DNA of 64,000 bases from NCBI GenBank assembly GCA_965203325.1, contig OZ241875.1, forward strand, positions 4,000,001-4,064,000, given 5' to 3'. The position numbers were made by a program. Below are positions 42,001-51,000 of this stretch, piece after piece. This stretch comes from a bacterium (GTDB lineage: Bacteria > UBA8248). Each line of letters opens with the position of its first letter. Within the stretch, counting starts at the first letter, position 1.

Positions 42001-45000
42001 CAGGTCGATTTCCGAATCGTTTTCCAGCGCATTGTATAGAAGACGGCTTTCGCTGTCCGGGATCATGAGAGCGTGCGTGAAGCCGAGTTCGTGAAGTTTC
42101 CGGACCGTTTTGCTTGCGCTTGCGCCCTTCTCGCTCAAGTATTTTCCTCTCGAATTAGAATTGCATATTCTTATCTGTCGAGGGGCCATCTTCTGCGCCG
42201 CATAACGCCCAAGTCAAGAGTTCCCGGCGAAATTATCGTGCGTATTGAAACTGCGGGGATATGATAACTTCCTGGAAGTGATATGCTCGATTTGTTCGGA
42301 CGTGATGCGTTTTCCGCACATGGCGCGCTGAGAAAGAAAGGGAGCCGCGTTGAAACGACGACCCGTAATCGCCATGACCATGGGAGACCCGGCGGGGGTG
42401 GGGCCCGAGGTTTGCCTGAAAGCCGTCCTGGATGCGGGCGTTCAGAGAAAATGCGCCCCCCTCATCGTGGGCGACATGGCCGTGCTCAGGAAACACGCCC
42501 GGCGGATGAAGATTCCGGCGTGTCTGGCACGGGTAGCTGATGAGGCGAAACTGGCGCAACCCCAAAGCTCGGCTGCCACGCCCGTGATTGATCTCAATAG
42601 CGTCGCTCCTGAACACCGCGTTTTCGGAAAAGTCATCCCCGAATTGGGTGCGGCGGCGGGCCAATACATCGAAAAGGCCGTCTCGATGGCGCGCTCGGGC
42701 CTCGTGGATGCCGTAGCGACCGCGCCGATCAACAAGGAATCCTTACAAGCCGGGGGATACGACTACCCCGGTCATACCGAGATGCTCGCCGACCTGTGCG
42801 GCGGGGGGCGGCCCGTCATGATGCTGGCGCACCGCAAGATACGCATCGCGCACCTGTCTACCCATTGTCCCTTGCGAGTCGCGCTCCGGCGCGTGAAGAG
42901 AAAGCGAATCGTGTACGTGGCGCGTGTTCTGGAGGACGCCCTGCGCTTGCTGGACAGAAAAAAGCCCAGAATCGGCGTTGCGGGTCTCAACCCACACGCG
43001 GGCGAGGGCGGCTTGTTCGGGAGAGAAGAAGTGGAGGAAATCGCGCCCGCGGTCGCGGATTTAAGGGATATGGGCGTCGACGCACACGGCCCCGAGCCTC
43101 CGGACACGATTTTCGGGAAATTGCGCGGCGGCTACTACAGCGGCGTCGTGGCGATGTATCACGATCAGGGGCACATTCCGGGCAAGCTGATGTGCTTTCG
43201 CTTCGACTCCCAGGGACAGGCGAACGTTCGCGGCGTCAACGTGACGCTGGGTCTGCCCATCGTCAGGACCTCGGTCGAACACGGGACGGGATTCCCCATT
43301 GCCGGGCAAGGTATCGCCGACCCCTCCAGTATGGTTGATGCACTTATCCTCGCGGCGCGGATGGCTGTAAGCAACTGAAATTAAAAGATATATTATCTTA
43401 TACTACGGCGATTTTTTTATCGAAAAACCCCGTGAATTTATCGAAATTTTCATCAATTCGATTTTCCCGCCCTTTGGAAGCGGCTCCTACGTATGCAACC
43501 CACACCTCCCCCTCACGATCGGCATATGGTAAGCAGGTGCACCGCTTCGGCGCCCGCTTTTTTGAGTTCGCGGGCGCAGGCCGAGGCGGTCGAGCCGGTC
43601 GTGACGACGTCGTCGACGAGGATGCAGGTGGCCGCTTCGATTTTCGGACTCGCCTTGTTTGAGCGAGCACGGAATACGCCCCGCATGTTCCGGCGCCGCT
43701 CCCTGGCGGTGAGGCCCGTCTGCGAGCGGGTCGCCTTCGCGCGTTCGAGTAAGTCCGCGTGGGGGATGCCCAGGCATTCCGCCGTCATGAGGGCGAGCAG
43801 CATCGCCTGATCGAAGCCTCTCGTCCTCCAGCGGGCGGGGTCGATGGGCACGTGCGTAACCACCACGTCGCGCGCGTCTGCATCGATTCCGAATTCCGCC
43901 GCCGCGAGCCCGGCGAGATGGGGCGCGAACTCGCGCGCGAGCTTCGTGAATCCCTGGAACTTGAAGAGGTGGACCGCTTCGCGCAGCGAGTCCTCATACG
44001 CACCGATGGCGCGGGCCATGTCGTAGTGATGCCCGTTTTCTAGGCAATCCGCGCAGACGTGGGCCGGGGAATGGGTGAGGGCGGTCAGGGAGTGAAAAGG
44101 AGTTCCGCACCTGGGGCACCAGGGGGGTTCAAAGCGCTCGAAGGCTTCCGTGCAGGGCGTGCATATCGCGTGGGGGTCGCCGATTTCCATGGAAGCCGAA
44201 CACAAGAGGCATTTCGGAGGGATGAGAAAGTCCGTCGCTGCGCCGATGAGTCTGCGGAGATAACCCATGATCCCTGGAAAACACTCGCTTCGGGTCCCGG
44301 GTATGAAAAAATGTGGCCCCCTCGTACGGGCCGGTTGCGGCGAGAAATATTAGGATTTTCTTTTGAGTTGAACCCTTTTGCTGCCCGTACCCTCGCTCTG
44401 CGCCTCGCCCTTGCGGCGGTGGCGGATGAGTTCGGCGACGATGGCGACGCCGATCTCTCCCGGCGTGTCGGCGCCGATGTCGAGGCCGATGGGCGCATGG
44501 ACGCGCTCGATGAGTTCGCCCCTGGCGTAGCCCTTGTCCTGGAGGTGGCGATAGGTGAGCAGCACCTTGCTTTTCGAGCCTATCATCCCGATGTAGCGCG
44601 CGGCCGTCTTCATGGCCCATTCGAGGACGACCTCGTCGTTCGAGTGCCCCCGTGTGATGATGGCCAGATAGTCGGACTCGTCGACCGGTATTTTCTCGAA
44701 GATTTCGGGGAACTCGCCGACATAGAACGACTCCGCCATCGGGAAGCGCTCCTTGTTGGCGAACGAGGGCCGATCCTCGACTATCGAGACCCGGAAGCCG
44801 GCGAGATAGGCCGCCTGCGCAACGCAGAACGACACGTGCCCTCCGCCGAAAATATAGACGAGCGGCTGGCCGGATATGGGTTCGACGAAAATTTCGGTTG
44901 CGTCCGTGAGCGTCGAACGCTTTTCTCCCGCGCGCGCGGCGTCCCTGTTGAACTGCATGAGGGTGGGACTGCCGTTGCGGATGATTTGCGTGCTCTCCGC

Positions 45001-48000: not shown

Positions 48001-51000
48001 GTCTTCGACGTGAATGGCGTCTTCGCCGTTCTTCGCCTTGGGGCCGAAGTTCAAGGCGAGGTCGTAATCGTGCGCGGTTACCTGCGCGAGCGCTTCGAGA
48101 CGGGCGCGTCGGCGTTCCATGCCTCATCCCCCGGCTAGAAGTGGTTGTCTACGATGTCCTCGAGCACTTTGGCGTCGAAAGAGTTGACCTTGCTGAAGAT
48201 GGTCGAGACGGCGGCTTCCATGGGGTCGAACTGCGCCGCCATGCGCGCCCAGTCGATGAGGCGCCGGGTGCTGAACGTGCAGAACACCTTTTCGTTCTGC
48301 ATGGCCTCGCGCACGTCGTGGCCCACGCGCACCATGCGCTTGATGAGCTCTTCATCATTGTTGCCGCTCTGCTGCATGATGACCTCGACTTCCGCGTCGA
48401 ACGGCAGGTAGTCCATCTTCACGGTAACCGGGAAGCGGTCCAGAAGCGCCTCGTTCAGGGGCTTGGTGCCGCCGTATCTGCGGTCCTCGTGCGGGTTCAT
48501 GCTGGCGAAAAGCCTGAAGTTCGGATGCGGCTTGACGATGCGGCCGTCGTATTCCGACAAGACGATCATGCGGTCGTCGTCGAGCAGGCTGTGCAGGCAA
48601 AAGGCGATTTCGGGCAGGCACGCGTTGATCTCGTCGATGAGCAGCCAGTCGCCCGACTGCATGGCGTCGACCAGAATGCCGTTCACCCAGTAGGTGCCCT
48701 GTTCGTTGATCATCAGCTTGCCCACGAACTCGTCGACCGTGGTCATGCCGTTCAGGTTCACGCGCCGGAAGCCGTTGTTCGTCATGTGGGCGAGGTGGCG
48801 CACCGAGAGAGTCTTGCCGACGCCGGTCTCCCCGACGAGGAGAGCGGGGAGGTTCCTGCTCACCGCCCATGCGATGCGCTCGAGCGCGTCTCCCGCCGCC
48901 AGATAGAATTGCGCCGGGGGAACGAAGGAGTTCCCGTTCGTCTCGTTGATGGGGATTTCGCTGCGCCCGATCCGGTAGGTTCCGTTTTTCACCGTTTCGG
49001 TCAAGATTTCGGTAGTCAATTCGCATACTCCATGGCTGAAACGCCGAACAGAAACATCATGATGGCCTCGAGCGCGCCACCTCCGATGGCGCGCGATTTA
49101 TCCGATATCGTATGGCAATGGGCGGGCTCGGCCCTCGGGTCGACGTCGCCCACCTTGAAGCCGGCAGGCACCTCGATGCCGTCTCTCAGCAGCCCCCGTA
49201 AAACGCCGTCGATGGCGGAGGTCACTTCCGCGCCGTCCACGCGGGCGACGGCCTCTCCCGCCCGCACCATGTCGCCTATCCCGGCGATGGAGGTGAATAC
49301 GCCTGCTTTGGGCGCACGCAGCAGCCGTTCGGTGGTGTAGCCGCCGATGGGGCCCGGAACGCCGGTGTTCGGTTTCGCGCCGCCTTCCAGTATGACCCTT
49401 CCCAGATCGTGTCCCCGGGAGGTCTCGACCACGGCGTGGCAATCGACGCCCGCCGTGAAGCCCGGCCCGAGGCCGACGACGACCTCCGCGTCGTCGATGC
49501 GCGTGCCGAGGTTTCGCTTCGCGAGAATCGCATCGACCACGACGGCGGGCCGGAGGTGATCGATCACCTCGGCTTGCGGGTCCACCATTACCGGAATCGA
49601 ACCCGCCTCCAGAATGGCGCGCGCTCTCTGTGCTTTCTCCGCTGGTGTCTTGCCGTCCGCCCGGGCGGAGATCAGGCCCTCCACTCTCCACTCATCCGCA
49701 TACAGACACTCGGCGAACGAGACGGTGCGCCTCACCATCGTGGGGTTTTCGATTTCGGTGATCGCGACCGGAAAACCCGCGCGGTGCAGGCGGTGCGACA
49801 CGCCGGTGGCGAGGTCGCCGCCTCCTTTGACGAGTACGAGCGTCTCGGTGATCGACTTGCGGCTGCTCATCGCATCTAGTCTTCCACGAAGGCGATCGCG
49901 TCGATCTCGATGATCCACTCGGGTTTCGCCAGGCCGCTCACGACCAGGAGCGTGCTCGCCGGGTACGGCTCGTTGAAGTAGGTCTGCCGCACCTCCATGC
50001 ATCCCGGGACATTCGCAGAGTCGGTGATATAGACGGTCAGGCGGATGATGTCCGCCATCCCGGCGCCCGCCGCTTCGAGCGCGGCCTTGATGTTCTCGTA
50101 CACCTGCCGGGTCTGGCCCCTGATGTCGTCTCCCCCGACGGTGTTCCCATCCACGTCGACCGCCACTTGGCCCGCCAGCATGATGAGATGTCCGTTCGAT
50201 ACCTTCCAGCCGGTGGAATAAGCGGCGACCGGTTTCACCTTGTCGGAGTTGATCTGTTGTTTCGCCATTGGGTTCTCCCTCCCGCATCTCATCAGAAAAG
50301 AATGGTCATCTTCCCCGGAAACGGAAATCTAGCACGGGGCCGAACACGAGGCAACGCGAACGGGGTTGTTGAAAAACCCCCCGCCGGGGGAGCCGCCTTT
50401 GCCTCCCTGAAAAGGGCTTGTTGAAAAATCCGGTTACGGCAGCGGGCTTCGCAGAAGGCCTGATGTCCTCATCCTGAGTAGGCGCGCAAGCGCCGTATCG
50501 AAGGATGGGGTGCATCTCTCCGGCGGGCGCGAACTTCGCCCTTCGACAGGCTCAGGACAGGCCCCTTCGATACGCGGCTTCGCCGCTACTCAGGGTGAGG
50601 CGAACGGCGGCACTGCTCGGGGCGGAGGGGCTTTTTTTAACAACCCTGAGAAGGGGGGACAGGGCGGGGATGCCTTTCAAGGCGAGAGTGGCAAGGGGGA
50701 TGCTTTTCAAGTCGAGGAGAGCGAGTGAAGCATGATTCACTCCGAACTCCCCAACTCCCCTCGTCGAACCCCCACCCCCCTTGTCAGGGGGCTTTTTTAG
50801 TGGCCCCGAGAGAGTGCGATTTTTCGTGAAATCGGATTTTTCGTGTGGTAGATTCTGACTGAAAATCATGACTGGAACCACCAAACCGCAGTGTGGCATG
50901 CGAATGAATTGCATGTTTCACCGAGCGGACGAGGAGAGGACCCGTGGGGAAAATGCCAAAGTACGAGATAAGCGAAGTTCTAGCGAAAGTCATGGGGCGA

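Follow-up and report, generated by a model that had tools for sequence, protein, structure and literature searches.

A CobS/CobT-like AAA+ ATPase and VWA protein in a YqeB/YqeC cluster, a candidate helper pair for molybdenum hydroxylase maturation

Organization of the maturation cluster

The window is the whole stretch of DNA that was analysed, 64,000 nt of contig OZ241875.1 (4,000,001 to 4,064,000), and all coordinates are positions within it, position 1 being its first letter. Profile matches identify seven tightly packed or overlapping minus-strand genes, encoding in order a Rid/RutC-like protein, YqeB, an AAA+ ATPase, a VWA protein, YqeC, XdhC, and a ComF-like protein (Table 1). The first-pass annotation described a seven-gene operon here, and we confirm the order of its genes and its family assignments, but the Rid and ComF genes lie outside the conserved core, and its 'YqeB N-part' and 'XdhC/YqeB C-part' are instead two complete, separate proteins. 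The Rid/RutC-like gene is a variable first gene that only part of the order's loci have and many lack, and its matches to TIGR00004 (79.6 bits) and RutC (68.7 bits) are each under the respective cut-off. The ComF-like gene, similarly under cut-off for GntX (120.7 bits) and comF (95.4 bits), is absent from some loci of the order; it closes the co-directional run and may or may not belong to the operon.

Table 1. Genes and features of the cluster, with positions in the window.
Feature	Position	Strand	Supporting matches or context
Rid/RutC-like (YjgF/L-PSP family) gene	49876-50292 (annotated start probably 50268)	-	PF01042 95.2 bits
yqeB, selenium-dependent molybdenum cofactor biosynthesis protein, 284 aa	49016-49870	-	TIGR03309 360.2 bits
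AAA+ ATPase, 294 aa	48135-49019	-	AAA_5 99.3 bits, CbbQ_C 39.8 bits
CobT-like VWA adaptor, 590 aa	46348-48120	-	CobT_C 67 bits, VWA 29.5 bits
yqeC	45527-46354	-	TIGR03172 157.5 bits
xdhC-family Moco-insertion chaperone, 385 aa	44350-45507	-	XdhC_C 126 bits, XdhC_CoxI 94.6 bits
ComF/GntX-like phosphoribosyltransferase, double zinc ribbon	43513-44268	-	DZR_2 43.8 bits, Pribosyltran 34.1 bits
Upstream intergenic region, ~650 nt, presumed promoter region	50293-50943		Between cluster and divergent TetR-family gene
Divergent TetR-family gene	50944-51543	+	TetR_N and TetR_C_13 matches

A gap of 5 nt separates Rid from yqeB, placing the YqeB ATG start 5 nt past the Rid stop, and the ATPase gene begins at a TTG that overlaps the yqeB stop (4 nt overlap). 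After a 14 nt gap comes the VWA gene, whose stop is in turn overlapped by the TTG start of yqeC (7 nt overlap). These overlapping start and stop codons at both junctions mark a tight operon with translational coupling. YqeC and XdhC are 19 nt apart, and the 81 nt between XdhC and ComF contain a terminator-like hairpin (44332-44315), in a region where the hairpin count is not above chance. Within the upstream intergenic region, no family was matched in an Rfam search and no promoter-like site was found in a consensus scan.

YqeB is the sole copy in the genome, and its TIGR03309 match, well over the cut-off of 220, covers positions 1-255 of 256. Its Cys252 does not vary in a 15-row alignment of sequences from this phylum, nor in a 6-row alignment that adds four from Anaerolineales. 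The yqeC gene, the first of two copies in the genome, encodes a P-loop motif (GGGGKT) and exceeds the TIGR03172 cut-off of 73.05, and the XdhC protein scores 310.5 bits against NF045664, under the cut-off of 350; a whole-genome PF02625 search shows it to be the genome's only XdhC. As the first-pass annotation stated, the genome encodes SelD and several xanthine-dehydrogenase-family enzymes; the SelD gene has an in-frame TGA, and there are about ten hydroxylase large-subunit genes. Any selenium dependence among these hydroxylases is a prediction from similarity.

The AAA+ ATPase and VWA protein and their relatives

The two genes between yqeB and yqeC had been assigned to a MoxR/CbbQ-type AAA+ ATPase and a 590-aa CobT_C/VWA protein, and both families are borne out by the AAA_5, CbbQ_C, CobT_C, and VWA matches. 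Within the MoxR class, the ATPase (AAA_5 with CbbQ_C) belongs with CbbQ, NorQ, and CobS, and its Walker A (GETGVGKT, 63-70) and Walker B (WLLIDE, 125-130) motifs are both intact. The single-domain proteins of solved structure that match it best are CobS (98 bits), NorQ (82 bits), and CbbQ (81.5 bits). The VWA protein, the only CobT_C match in the genome, has a helical domain at its N-terminus (1-226), then an acidic linker that is disordered (~228-290), and at its C-terminus a VWA/MIDAS domain (~388-583), in which the MIDAS residues D397, S399, S401, T436, and D519 are invariant among 19 sequences. CobT is its best solved sequence relative (53.6 bits), and an AlphaFold2 model (mean pLDDT 78) most closely matches the folds of the NorD VWA domain (Foldseek E 1.7e-8) and the MDN1/Rea1 MIDAS domain. 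The pair is CobS/CobT-like and not CoxD/CoxE-like, with CobS/CobT, NorQ/NorD, and CbbQ as nearest relatives. The subfamily is narrow: about ten clusters at 50% identity score above 390 bits, out of a superfamily that numbers 1,370 at E<=1e-30.

The architecture, a ~300-aa AAA_5-type ATPase with a ~600-aa protein in which an acidic linker joins a helical N-domain to a CobT_C VWA-MIDAS domain, is that of the CobS/CobT components of the aerobic cobaltochelatase CobNST, which inserts the cobalt of vitamin B12; these components are the best matches both among solved structures and in NCBIfam. A true cobaltochelatase motor for cobalamin synthesis would account for CobS and CobT being the top named families and for a resemblance of the VWA N-domain features to CobT-domain clusters (a lead only). 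Nonetheless, this explanation is close to refuted: the scores are far under the equivalog cut-offs (CobS 88 bits against 558.55; CobT 58.8 against 759.05), no CobN (PF02514) was found in this single-contig, 95.5% complete genome, and the pair is flanked not by cobalamin genes but by yqeB, yqeC, and xdhC, or elsewhere by a Mo hydroxylase.

NorQ/NorD in nitric oxide reductase maturation and CbbQ/CbbO as a Rubisco activase each use a ring ATPase and a MIDAS adaptor to work on a metalloenzyme that is already folded. The ATPase here shares their AAA_5 plus CbbQ_C class and the VWA model is closest to NorD, but the N-terminal part of the adaptor and the genomic clients differ, and no nor or cbb genes are nearby. 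The pair could also act, like CbbQ/CbbO, in repair or reactivation, re-opening hydroxylases that have lost a labile Se or S so that it can be replaced, as distinct from first-time assembly. The shared ATPase class, a restricted distribution that suits an optional add-on, and the lability ascribed to the selenium ligand in PMC11448449 are consistent with this; a place in a biosynthetic operon fits assembly at least equally well, and we consider repair improbable.

The closest functional precedent is CoxD/CoxE, also an AAA+ ATPase and a VWA protein encoded with a molybdoenzyme of the xanthine dehydrogenase family. According to PMC4240915, folded CO dehydrogenase has its Mo sulfurated in an ATP-dependent step for which the AAA+ protein CoxD is essential, and CoxD/CoxE(/CoxF) place the labile ligand, S and then Cu, on the Mo of the folded apoenzyme. 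The CoxD-CoxE likeness drawn in the first-pass annotation holds as such a precedent but goes no further than analogy: against VWA_CoxE the VWA protein scores 19.7 bits, under the cut-off of 26.4, the family is different, CbbQ_C is present in the ATPase, and CoxF is missing. This genome has a genuine CoxD/CoxE-type pair (VWA_CoxE 204 bits) at a separate locus, ~200-204 kb, beside genes for FAD and FeS subunits.

Conservation in the phylum and a second context in Chloroflexota

The pair was said to be conserved between yqeB and yqeC in this order, and this is upheld by counts taken by hand from match coordinates. YqeB, VWA, and YqeC are co-linear on one contig in 35/44 genomes of the order (YqeB-AAA-VWA-YqeC), and in a further eight the cluster is cut by contig ends with its pieces co-linear; the one genome with no VWA match is 67% complete. 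VWA and YqeC are side by side on the same contig in 42 of the 44. Among order-type loci in named MAGs, 31 of 38 have YqeB-AAA-VWA-YqeC-XdhC in order, the other seven end at a contig edge, and none contradicts it. In the sister family YqeB-AAA-VWA is adjacent in all five holders, whereas their YqeC gene is either 370-600 kb distant or on a different contig, so that the constant unit across the order and sister family is the YqeB-AAA-VWA trio. Across the 51 genomes of the phylum, VWA is present in 48, and YqeB and YqeC in 49 each; two genomes of one genus, both 95% complete, lack the pair and also YqeB, YqeC, and any MoCoBD_1 hydroxylase.

The claim that the arrangement is found nowhere else holds for the yqeB/yqeC-flanked position, which is order-specific in the genomes searched, but not for the pair itself, which has other contexts in the sister family and in Chloroflexota. 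Anaerolineales-labelled Chloroflexota MAGs encode an orthologous pair (AAA ~65%, VWA ~36% identical), and in 21 of 26 loci it lies directly downstream of genes for the FAD, FeS, and split large subunits of a molybdenum hydroxylase; four of the remaining loci start at the pair and one has no upstream match. The same order is seen in 19 of 27 metagenome contigs, some of which duplicate MAG contigs, and the other eight begin at the pair. The cluster ends with an XdhC gene and is not adjoined by yqeB-yqeC, and it would therefore be as compatible with a function in sulfur or Moco handling as with one in selenium. Its hydroxylase has as best solved relative 3hrd_A, the large subunit of E. barkeri nicotinate dehydrogenase (233 bits, the next hit reaching 164), a class called selenium-dependent in a 2025 preprint; the Chloroflexota enzyme thus resembles a selenium enzyme and, from its sequence, may itself depend on selenium. 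The hydroxylases of the present genome are 31-41% identical to it, none being a close orthologue.

YqeB is over cut-off in 22 of 25 Chloroflexota pair-holders, with one fragment at a contig end and two lacking it, against 128/301 in an even sample of Anaerolineales genomes, an enrichment that may reflect a single clade with universal YqeB. All five holders examined for them have YqeC and a SelD gene that contains an in-frame TGA. The VWA protein occurs in only 2/301 of the Anaerolineales sample, and 126 of its 128 YqeB-positive genomes lack the pair, which is therefore no general requirement of the selenium-cofactor trait; since most YqeB-bearing genomes are without it, it is an accessory and not a core factor.

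These distributions also bear on whether the client is a molybdenum enzyme. MoxR-class/VWA pairs have many different clients, and the same cluster has functionally unrelated members in the Rid gene and the ComF-like gene, so that the pair might serve, for example, another metal-insertion step, its neighbors being coincidental or merely co-regulated. Weighing against this are two conserved contexts in two phyla with the same enzyme family, the loss of the pair together with the hydroxylases, and the start/stop codon overlaps with yqeB and yqeC; no defence-system family was matched. We regard a client of this kind as unlikely.

Proposed role of the pair

A role in maturation of the Mo-hydroxylase active site is well supported by context: the pair is tied to the xanthine dehydrogenase family because it is kept with and lost with YqeB, YqeC, and the hydroxylases across the phylum, and because of its independent Chloroflexota context beside a nicotinate-dehydrogenase-like split hydroxylase. 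All of this support comes from where the genes lie and which of them occur together, in uncultured, related genomes that do not count as independent. We propose that the two proteins would constitute a motor-adaptor chaperone of the CobS/CobT and NorQ/NorD type, dedicated to these hydroxylases, that would finish their active site together with YqeB and probably with XdhC and YqeC as well. The ATPase would assemble as a ring on which the VWA protein docks, its MIDAS site and N-domain holding the client, and ATP hydrolysis would remodel either a folded apo-hydroxylase or a YqeB/XdhC-cofactor complex, such that a labile Mo ligand, most likely terminal selenium supplied by SelD and YqeB, could be installed or exchanged. 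Complex formation, client identity, and the chemical step are all things that we infer. That the pair is a maturation helper acting with YqeB has, in our judgement, about an even chance of being correct. The selenium-loading chaperone of the first-pass annotation keeps its link to hydroxylase maturation, through co-retention and the Chloroflexota context, whereas selenium installation as the pair's specific step is put forward only tentatively, as less likely than not.

The operon holds the genome's only XdhC, and general Moco insertion or sulfuration is therefore a live alternative, in which the pair would help XdhC service any enzyme of the family and its closeness to yqeB would reflect a gathering together of maturation genes. 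The genome has that single XdhC for about ten hydroxylase genes, the Chloroflexota cluster has XdhC without yqeB or yqeC, CoxD itself acts in sulfuration (PMC4240915), and 72 MoCoBD_1 matches in one sister-family genome suggest that machinery for servicing such enzymes in general is needed. Conversely, the sister-family unit is YqeB-AAA-VWA with no adjacent XdhC match, the Chloroflexota holders are mostly YqeB-positive and have SelD wherever it was examined, the enzyme adjoining their pair is most like a selenium-dependent one, and well-studied bacteria carry out XdhC-dependent maturation without such a pair, as far as the portion available of PMC2997495 describes. We view this general function as possible but rather unlikely.

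In returning to a helper that acts with YqeB, we note that the cluster shares with the described selenium-hydroxylase trait (2008; Johnstone and Self 2024) genuine YqeB and YqeC proteins, and the genome shares SelD, but that neither an ATPase nor a VWA protein belongs to the trait as described and that yqeB and yqeC are directly adjacent elsewhere, as in five Anaerolineales genomes. PMC11448449 gives genetic evidence that C. difficile needs yqeB to use purines in a selenium-dependent way. The pair is not reported in the E. coli and clostridia studied for the trait, and a link of MoxR, VWA, ATPase, or chaperone to it was not found in the portions available of PMC2276186, PMC5322559, PMC11448449, and the 2025 preprint; the literature searched yielded no earlier report connecting the pair with selenium hydroxylases. 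Lying inside a selenium-molybdenum maturation cluster, the pair is a good candidate for a helper in the poorly understood use of selenium.

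An ATPase/VWA pair in a selenium-cofactor gene cluster

Pfam and NCBIfam matches name seven co-directional genes on the minus strand at 43513-50292, among which a pair encoding an AAA+ ATPase and a CobT-like VWA protein stands between yqeB and yqeC. The presence of this pair inside a selenium-cofactor cluster, to which the first-pass annotation drew attention, is real and conserved: of the 44 genomes of the order, which include G000, the genome holding the window, 35 carry YqeB, the VWA protein and YqeC in co-linear order on a single contig (hand count from coordinates). Contig ends cut the cluster in 8 further genomes, and there the pieces are co-linear. 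Among the matches listed, the order YqeB-AAA-VWA-YqeC-XdhC is found in 31 of 38 named loci, and the other seven are end-of-contig cuts.

Genes of the selenium-cofactor cluster (window positions) and the CoxE-type gene found elsewhere in G000 (genome positions)
Gene product	Position	Strand	Matches
Rid/L-PSP (RutC-like)	49876-50292	-	under RutC and Rid equivalog cut-offs
YqeB	49016-49870	-	TIGR03309 360.2 bits (cut-off 220)
AAA+ ATPase, 294 aa	48135-49019	-	AAA_5 99.3 bits (cut-off 22); CbbQ_C 39.8 bits (cut-off 20.6)
CobT-like VWA protein, 590 aa	46348-48120	-	CobT_C 67 bits; VWA 29.5 bits
YqeC	45527-46354	-	TIGR03172 157.5 bits (cut-off 73.05)
XdhC, complete	44350-45507	-	generic Pfam domains XdhC_CoxI and XdhC_C
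ComF/GntX-like phosphoribosyltransferase	43513-44268	-	under cut-offs
CoxE-type protein	G000:202680-203945		VWA_CoxE 204 bits

The junction sequence places YqeB 5 nt beyond the Rid gene, and YqeB overlaps the ATPase gene by 4 nt; the VWA gene follows after a gap of 14 nt and overlaps by 7 nt the YqeC gene, which has a TTG start codon, and XdhC lies 19 nt further on. The 81 nt between XdhC and the ComF-like gene contain a terminator-like hairpin and T-run (44315-44332), a hint that the ComF-like gene may be transcribed separately; hairpins in the cluster region are no more numerous than expected by chance, as judged by shuffles. The XdhC protein scores 310.5 bits against the AOR maturation factor equivalog NF045664, under the cut-off of 350. 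A convergent PdxA-family gene borders the cluster on one side and a divergent TetR gene on the other. A promoter scan upstream of the cluster gave no promoter-like site, and promoter and terminator counts were not above those of shuffles. Rfam gave nothing credible, either for the whole window at gathering thresholds or for the upstream intergenic region at E<=1, and therefore no Moco riboswitch was found in the window. Neither hydroxylase subunit genes nor a molybdenum enzyme were found near the cluster within the 64-kb window.

Metatranscriptome contigs from three sponge RNA runs of one study match the cluster and, being only 90-97% alike, come from relatives. They span the XdhC/YqeC, VWA/AAA, AAA/YqeB and YqeB/Rid junctions and leave some parts of the cluster uncovered. 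We did not count them as evidence for an operon transcript, because a single transcript is not demonstrable from contigs and DNA carry-over is uncontrolled.

G000 is a single contig of 4.39 Mb with one copy each of YqeB, the CobT_C protein and the XdhC family, and two copies of YqeC. As the single YqeB and XdhC both lie in the cluster, this is the sole XdhC/YqeB maturation locus of G000. XDH-family large subunits are encoded at about ten places in the genome. The SelD gene (1726679-1727641 on contig C1; TIGR00476, 333 bits against 125) contains one in-frame TGA, and selenocysteine decoding by the organism is therefore probable. Residue 252 of YqeB is a cysteine (motif DPR...HC.TISDKSR) that is invariant in the YqeB proteins of the phylum and in four Anaerolineales sequences; from the alignment, Cys252 is a candidate carrier residue. 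The second YqeC (TIGR03172, 139.5 bits; G000:C1:2233064-2233708, in locus L005 at 9996-10787) is encoded between genes for an iron-type alcohol dehydrogenase and an M20 peptidase, with a 783-aa XDH-family hydroxylase gene about 6 kb away, and two YqeC matches are present in nearly all genomes of the order.

Elsewhere in the window, two overlapping minus-strand ORFs (53320-54485) carry acyl-CoA dehydrogenase domains, the C-terminal domain in a frame of 180 aa and the N-terminal and middle domains in one of 228 aa; a frameshift, pseudogene status or misassembly may explain the split, and an intact 390-aa paralogue adjoins them at 54499-55671. The region at 25365-27849, with an AtzD/TrzD-type ring-opening amidohydrolase (494 bits) near amino-acid-kinase-family and ABC transporter genes, may be an N-heterocycle degradation locus. 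Between 27900 and 36344 the ORFs have low third-position GC, the 949-aa and 687-aa frames have no Pfam family, and Rfam gave no match.

Family identity of the ATPase and the VWA protein

The ATPase has intact Walker A (GETGVGKT, residues 63-70) and Walker B (WLLIDE, 125-130) motifs. Of the solved single-domain proteins, CobS comes closest to it at 98 bits, ahead of NorQ (82 bits) and CbbQ (81.5 bits). We classify it, by sequence, as a MoxR-class AAA+ protein of the CbbQ/NorQ/CobS type. Among the matches listed, an AAA match directly precedes the VWA match in every related locus that extends upstream of the VWA gene. The nearest solved sequence relative of the VWA protein is CobT (53.6 bits), and the residues of its MIDAS motif (DxSxS...T...D; D397, S399, S401, T436 and D519) are invariant in a 19-sequence alignment. 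An AlphaFold2 model (pLDDT 78) has the NorD VWA domain and the MDN1/Rea1 MIDAS domain as its best fold matches. A whole-library profile search outlines a narrow subfamily: clusters at 50% identity that exceed 390 bits number about ten, and they are nested in a CobT-like superfamily that reaches 1,370 clusters at E<=1e-30, the next-nearest CobT-like subfamilies scoring 220-320 bits.

The N-terminal 226 residues of the VWA protein form a helical domain in a confident part of the model (pLDDT 89.7), for which a Foldseek search gave nothing at E<=0.001. VIA-align gave a top Z of 5.7, with several zincin peptidases at Z 4-5.4, under the tool's noise mark for helical domains. At the corresponding HExxH position the window protein has IEVAH and the Chloroflexota proteins HxxxH, and the sister family (same phylum, outside the order) alone has HExxH. 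Residues 1-230 (window 47431-48120) hold a nearly invariant W-H-x-L-E-D-A-R-x-E-N motif. Language-model (Atlas) features of the domain point to CobT-domain clusters, which, like the zincin likeness, we treat as a lead only. Complex prediction for the VWA protein with YqeB, using two alignments, scored 0.00 in both runs and is informative neither for nor against binding, and no PADLOC defence family matched the ATPase, the VWA protein or YqeB. In three relatives the VWA gene is read as two overlapping pieces (G014:C1:2956418-2958186, G003:C152:1-1508 and locus L058 at 8037-9769), which could reflect a frameshift or an in-frame stop, from sequencing error or real decay.

Equivalog scores are far from those of cobaltochelatase, at 88 against 558.55 bits for CobS (TIGR01650) and 58.8 against 759.05 bits for CobT (TIGR01651), and CobN (PF02514) has 0 matches in the single-contig, 95.5% complete G000. 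The first-pass annotation likened the pair to CoxD and CoxE of CO dehydrogenase, and a family relationship of that kind is not borne out: VWA_CoxE (PF05762) reaches only 19.7 bits against a cut-off of 26.4, over residues 501-546 only. With both sets of scores under their cut-offs, the pair is a CobS/CobT-like paralogue, and neither a cobaltochelatase nor a CoxD/E orthologue. CoxD and CoxE are moreover encoded with coxMSL and coxF, whereas the pair in the window has no hydroxylase subunit genes nearby. A genuine CoxD/CoxE-type pair, with a 314-aa AAA protein and a 421-aa VWA_CoxE protein, is encoded separately in G000 at about 200-204 kb, and the pair in the cluster is the second ATPase/VWA system of this genome, distinct from the CoxD/E type. 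The row at G000:C1:200259-203945 (locus L117, 4260-7946) reads CoxM-like FAD subunit, CoxS-like 2Fe-2S subunit, CoxD-like AAA protein and CoxE-type VWA protein; a large-subunit gene is not adjacent.

Distribution in the phylum and a second context in Chloroflexota

Related loci of the lineage come from MAGs labelled Nitrospinota or Tectomicrobia. The VWA protein is present in 43 of the 44 genomes of the order, G000 included, the sole miss being a 67%-complete genome; across the 51 genomes of the phylum in the collection searched it occurs in 48, and YqeC and YqeB in 49 each. The two genomes of genus g14 (G053 and G054; 2.1 Mb, 95% complete) are without the VWA protein, YqeB and YqeC and have zero MoCoBD_1 matches, so that the pair is lost when the hydroxylases are lost. 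MoCoBD_1 matches number 6 in a 2.2-Mb genome of the order and 72 in the 5.2-Mb single-contig sister-family genome G052, and the latter count points to about seventy genes for XDH-family hydroxylases in that genome. Five sister-family holders of the pair keep YqeB, the ATPase and the VWA protein adjacent with YqeC located elsewhere, and no XdhC match was found in these loci. The first-pass annotation, from its comparison table, had the pair occurring nowhere outside the order. It is carried by the sister family and by Chloroflexota as well; YqeB-AAA-VWA is the constant unit, and in the genomes searched the order is distinguished only by the position of the pair, with yqeB and yqeC on either side.

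The same VWA subfamily is found in Chloroflexota MAGs labelled Anaerolineae or Anaerolineales, whose orthologues are 60-70% identical to the window ATPase and 33-38% identical to the VWA protein over its full length. The cluster there runs ADH, MBL-fold, HIBADH-like, FAD subunit, 2Fe-2S subunit and a split large subunit of about 436 and 336 aa, followed by the ATPase, the VWA protein, aldehyde dehydrogenase, 2-hydroxyacid dehydrogenase, TIM-barrel, transketolase-like and XdhC genes. This conserved cluster, of about 14 genes with a four-subunit nicotinate-dehydrogenase-like hydroxylase, is seen in loci L060-L086 and L130-L158, from Chloroflexota MAGs and metagenome contigs. Among the matches listed, the M-type subunit gene lies upstream of the ATPase gene in 21 of 26 Chloroflexota loci; of the remainder, four start at the pair, and in one the 1.1 kb that precede it are without a match. 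Three Chloroflexota loci have an insert of 1.5-2.5 kb. Metagenome contigs fall into the same two context classes only: among the matches listed, 11 of 11 contigs of the order type are co-linear, and the 27 of the Chloroflexota type, some of which duplicate MAG contigs, divide into 19 that show the M subunit upstream of the pair and 8 that begin at the pair. These counts cover 80 of 129 VWA relatives in genome contigs and 80 of 471 in metagenome contigs. VWA relatives at 21-32% identity (L087-L097, from Hydrothermarchaeota and Eubacteriales, and L156 and L159-L163) have no YqeB, YqeC, XdhC or hydroxylase matches at their loci.

The nicotinate dehydrogenase of E. barkeri has four subunits and a Mo=Se ligand. 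Among solved structures the Chloroflexota L-type subunit matches 3hrd_A best, with 233 bits, and the second match reaches 164 bits; 3hrd_A is the nicotinate dehydrogenase chain of 425 aa named 'large molybdopterin subunit'. A 2025 preprint uses the term 'selenium-dependent nicotinate dehydrogenases' for this class. No clear orthologue of the Chloroflexota hydroxylase was found in G000, where the best match, a fused 765-aa gene at about 233 kb, is 34% identical over the L part and 41% over the M part.

All five Chloroflexota holder genomes tested for the selenium trait have SelD with an in-frame TGA and YqeC immediately beside YqeB; YqeB is over its cut-off in four of the five, the fifth being a contig-end fragment. 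In these holders the pair is far from yqeB-yqeC, by hundreds of kb where both are on the same contig. YqeB is over the cut-off in 18 of 20 further holders, giving 22 of 25 plus the one fragment, against a background of 128 genomes with YqeB and 2 with the VWA protein among 301 sampled evenly across that Chloroflexota order. The pair is enriched in YqeB-positive genomes, relatives among them being non-independent. It is rare among YqeB-positive genomes, and YqeB therefore works without it in most organisms.

A possible role in hydroxylase maturation

In two phyla, through gene orders unrelated to each other, the subfamily is tied to the same biology: one context consists of cofactor-maturation genes and the other of a candidate selenium-dependent hydroxylase with XdhC. 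The earlier idea of a chaperone linked to Mo hydroxylases is strengthened by this second context, with the pair now seen as CobST-like and no longer of the CoxD/E family. CoxD, needed for ATP-dependent Mo sulfuration in folded CO dehydrogenase according to the available text of PMC4240915, serves as a precedent for the proposed role, yet belongs to a different family from the window ATPase. On the best reading, a motor-adaptor of the CobST/NorQD type would remodel a folded hydroxylase, or a YqeB/XdhC-cofactor complex, and the remodelling would install the labile Mo ligand. A general Moco or sulfur role is a less probable alternative, consistent with the placement of the genome's sole XdhC in the cluster and with the Chloroflexota arrangement; the consistent association with YqeB speaks for selenium as the ligand, and we infer that the pair would load it. 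A repair (activase-like) role, a still less probable alternative, is inseparable here from assembly. In its most specific form, a tentative reading that we hold to be rather unlikely as it stands, the pair would be the missing energy-driven step, in which a CobS/CobT-derived motor forces YqeB-held selenium, possibly on Cys252, onto Mo in folded hydroxylases.

The available text of PMC11448449 describes the selenium ligand route to molybdenum hydroxylases as the least understood form of selenium incorporation, and yqeB of C. difficile as required for selenium-dependent purine use by an unknown mechanism. The parts available of PMC2276186, PMC5322559, PMC11448449, PMC5029168, PMC2997495 and the 2025 preprint contain no link of the selenium trait to an AAA+ or VWA protein. 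In full-text literature, mostly without subscription journals and supplements, we found no mention of YqeB with von Willebrand or of selenium-dependent molybdenum hydroxylases with AAA+, and MoxR, von Willebrand and xanthine dehydrogenase came together in the CoxDEF paper alone. Within the literature searched, the link between the pair and the selenium trait is unreported.

The pair is a concrete candidate for an ATP-dependent step, with the Chloroflexota nicotinate-dehydrogenase-like enzyme as a likely client for reconstitution. Its reach is limited, as most trait-bearing organisms are without it. If the proposal is true, motors of the CobS/CobT and NorQ/NorD types would extend to molybdoenzymes, beside the unrelated CoxD/CoxE pair, hydroxylases would join the clients of CbbQ/NorQ/CobS-type motors as a fourth class, and the pair would offer a handle for the test-tube rebuilding of selenium-dependent hydroxylases. 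This small phylum, with 51 genomes in the searched collection and many of its MAGs labelled Nitrospinota, invests heavily in the hydroxylase family, and a single maturation operon would then serve large sets of paralogous enzymes: G000 has about ten, and the sister-family genome about seventy matches.
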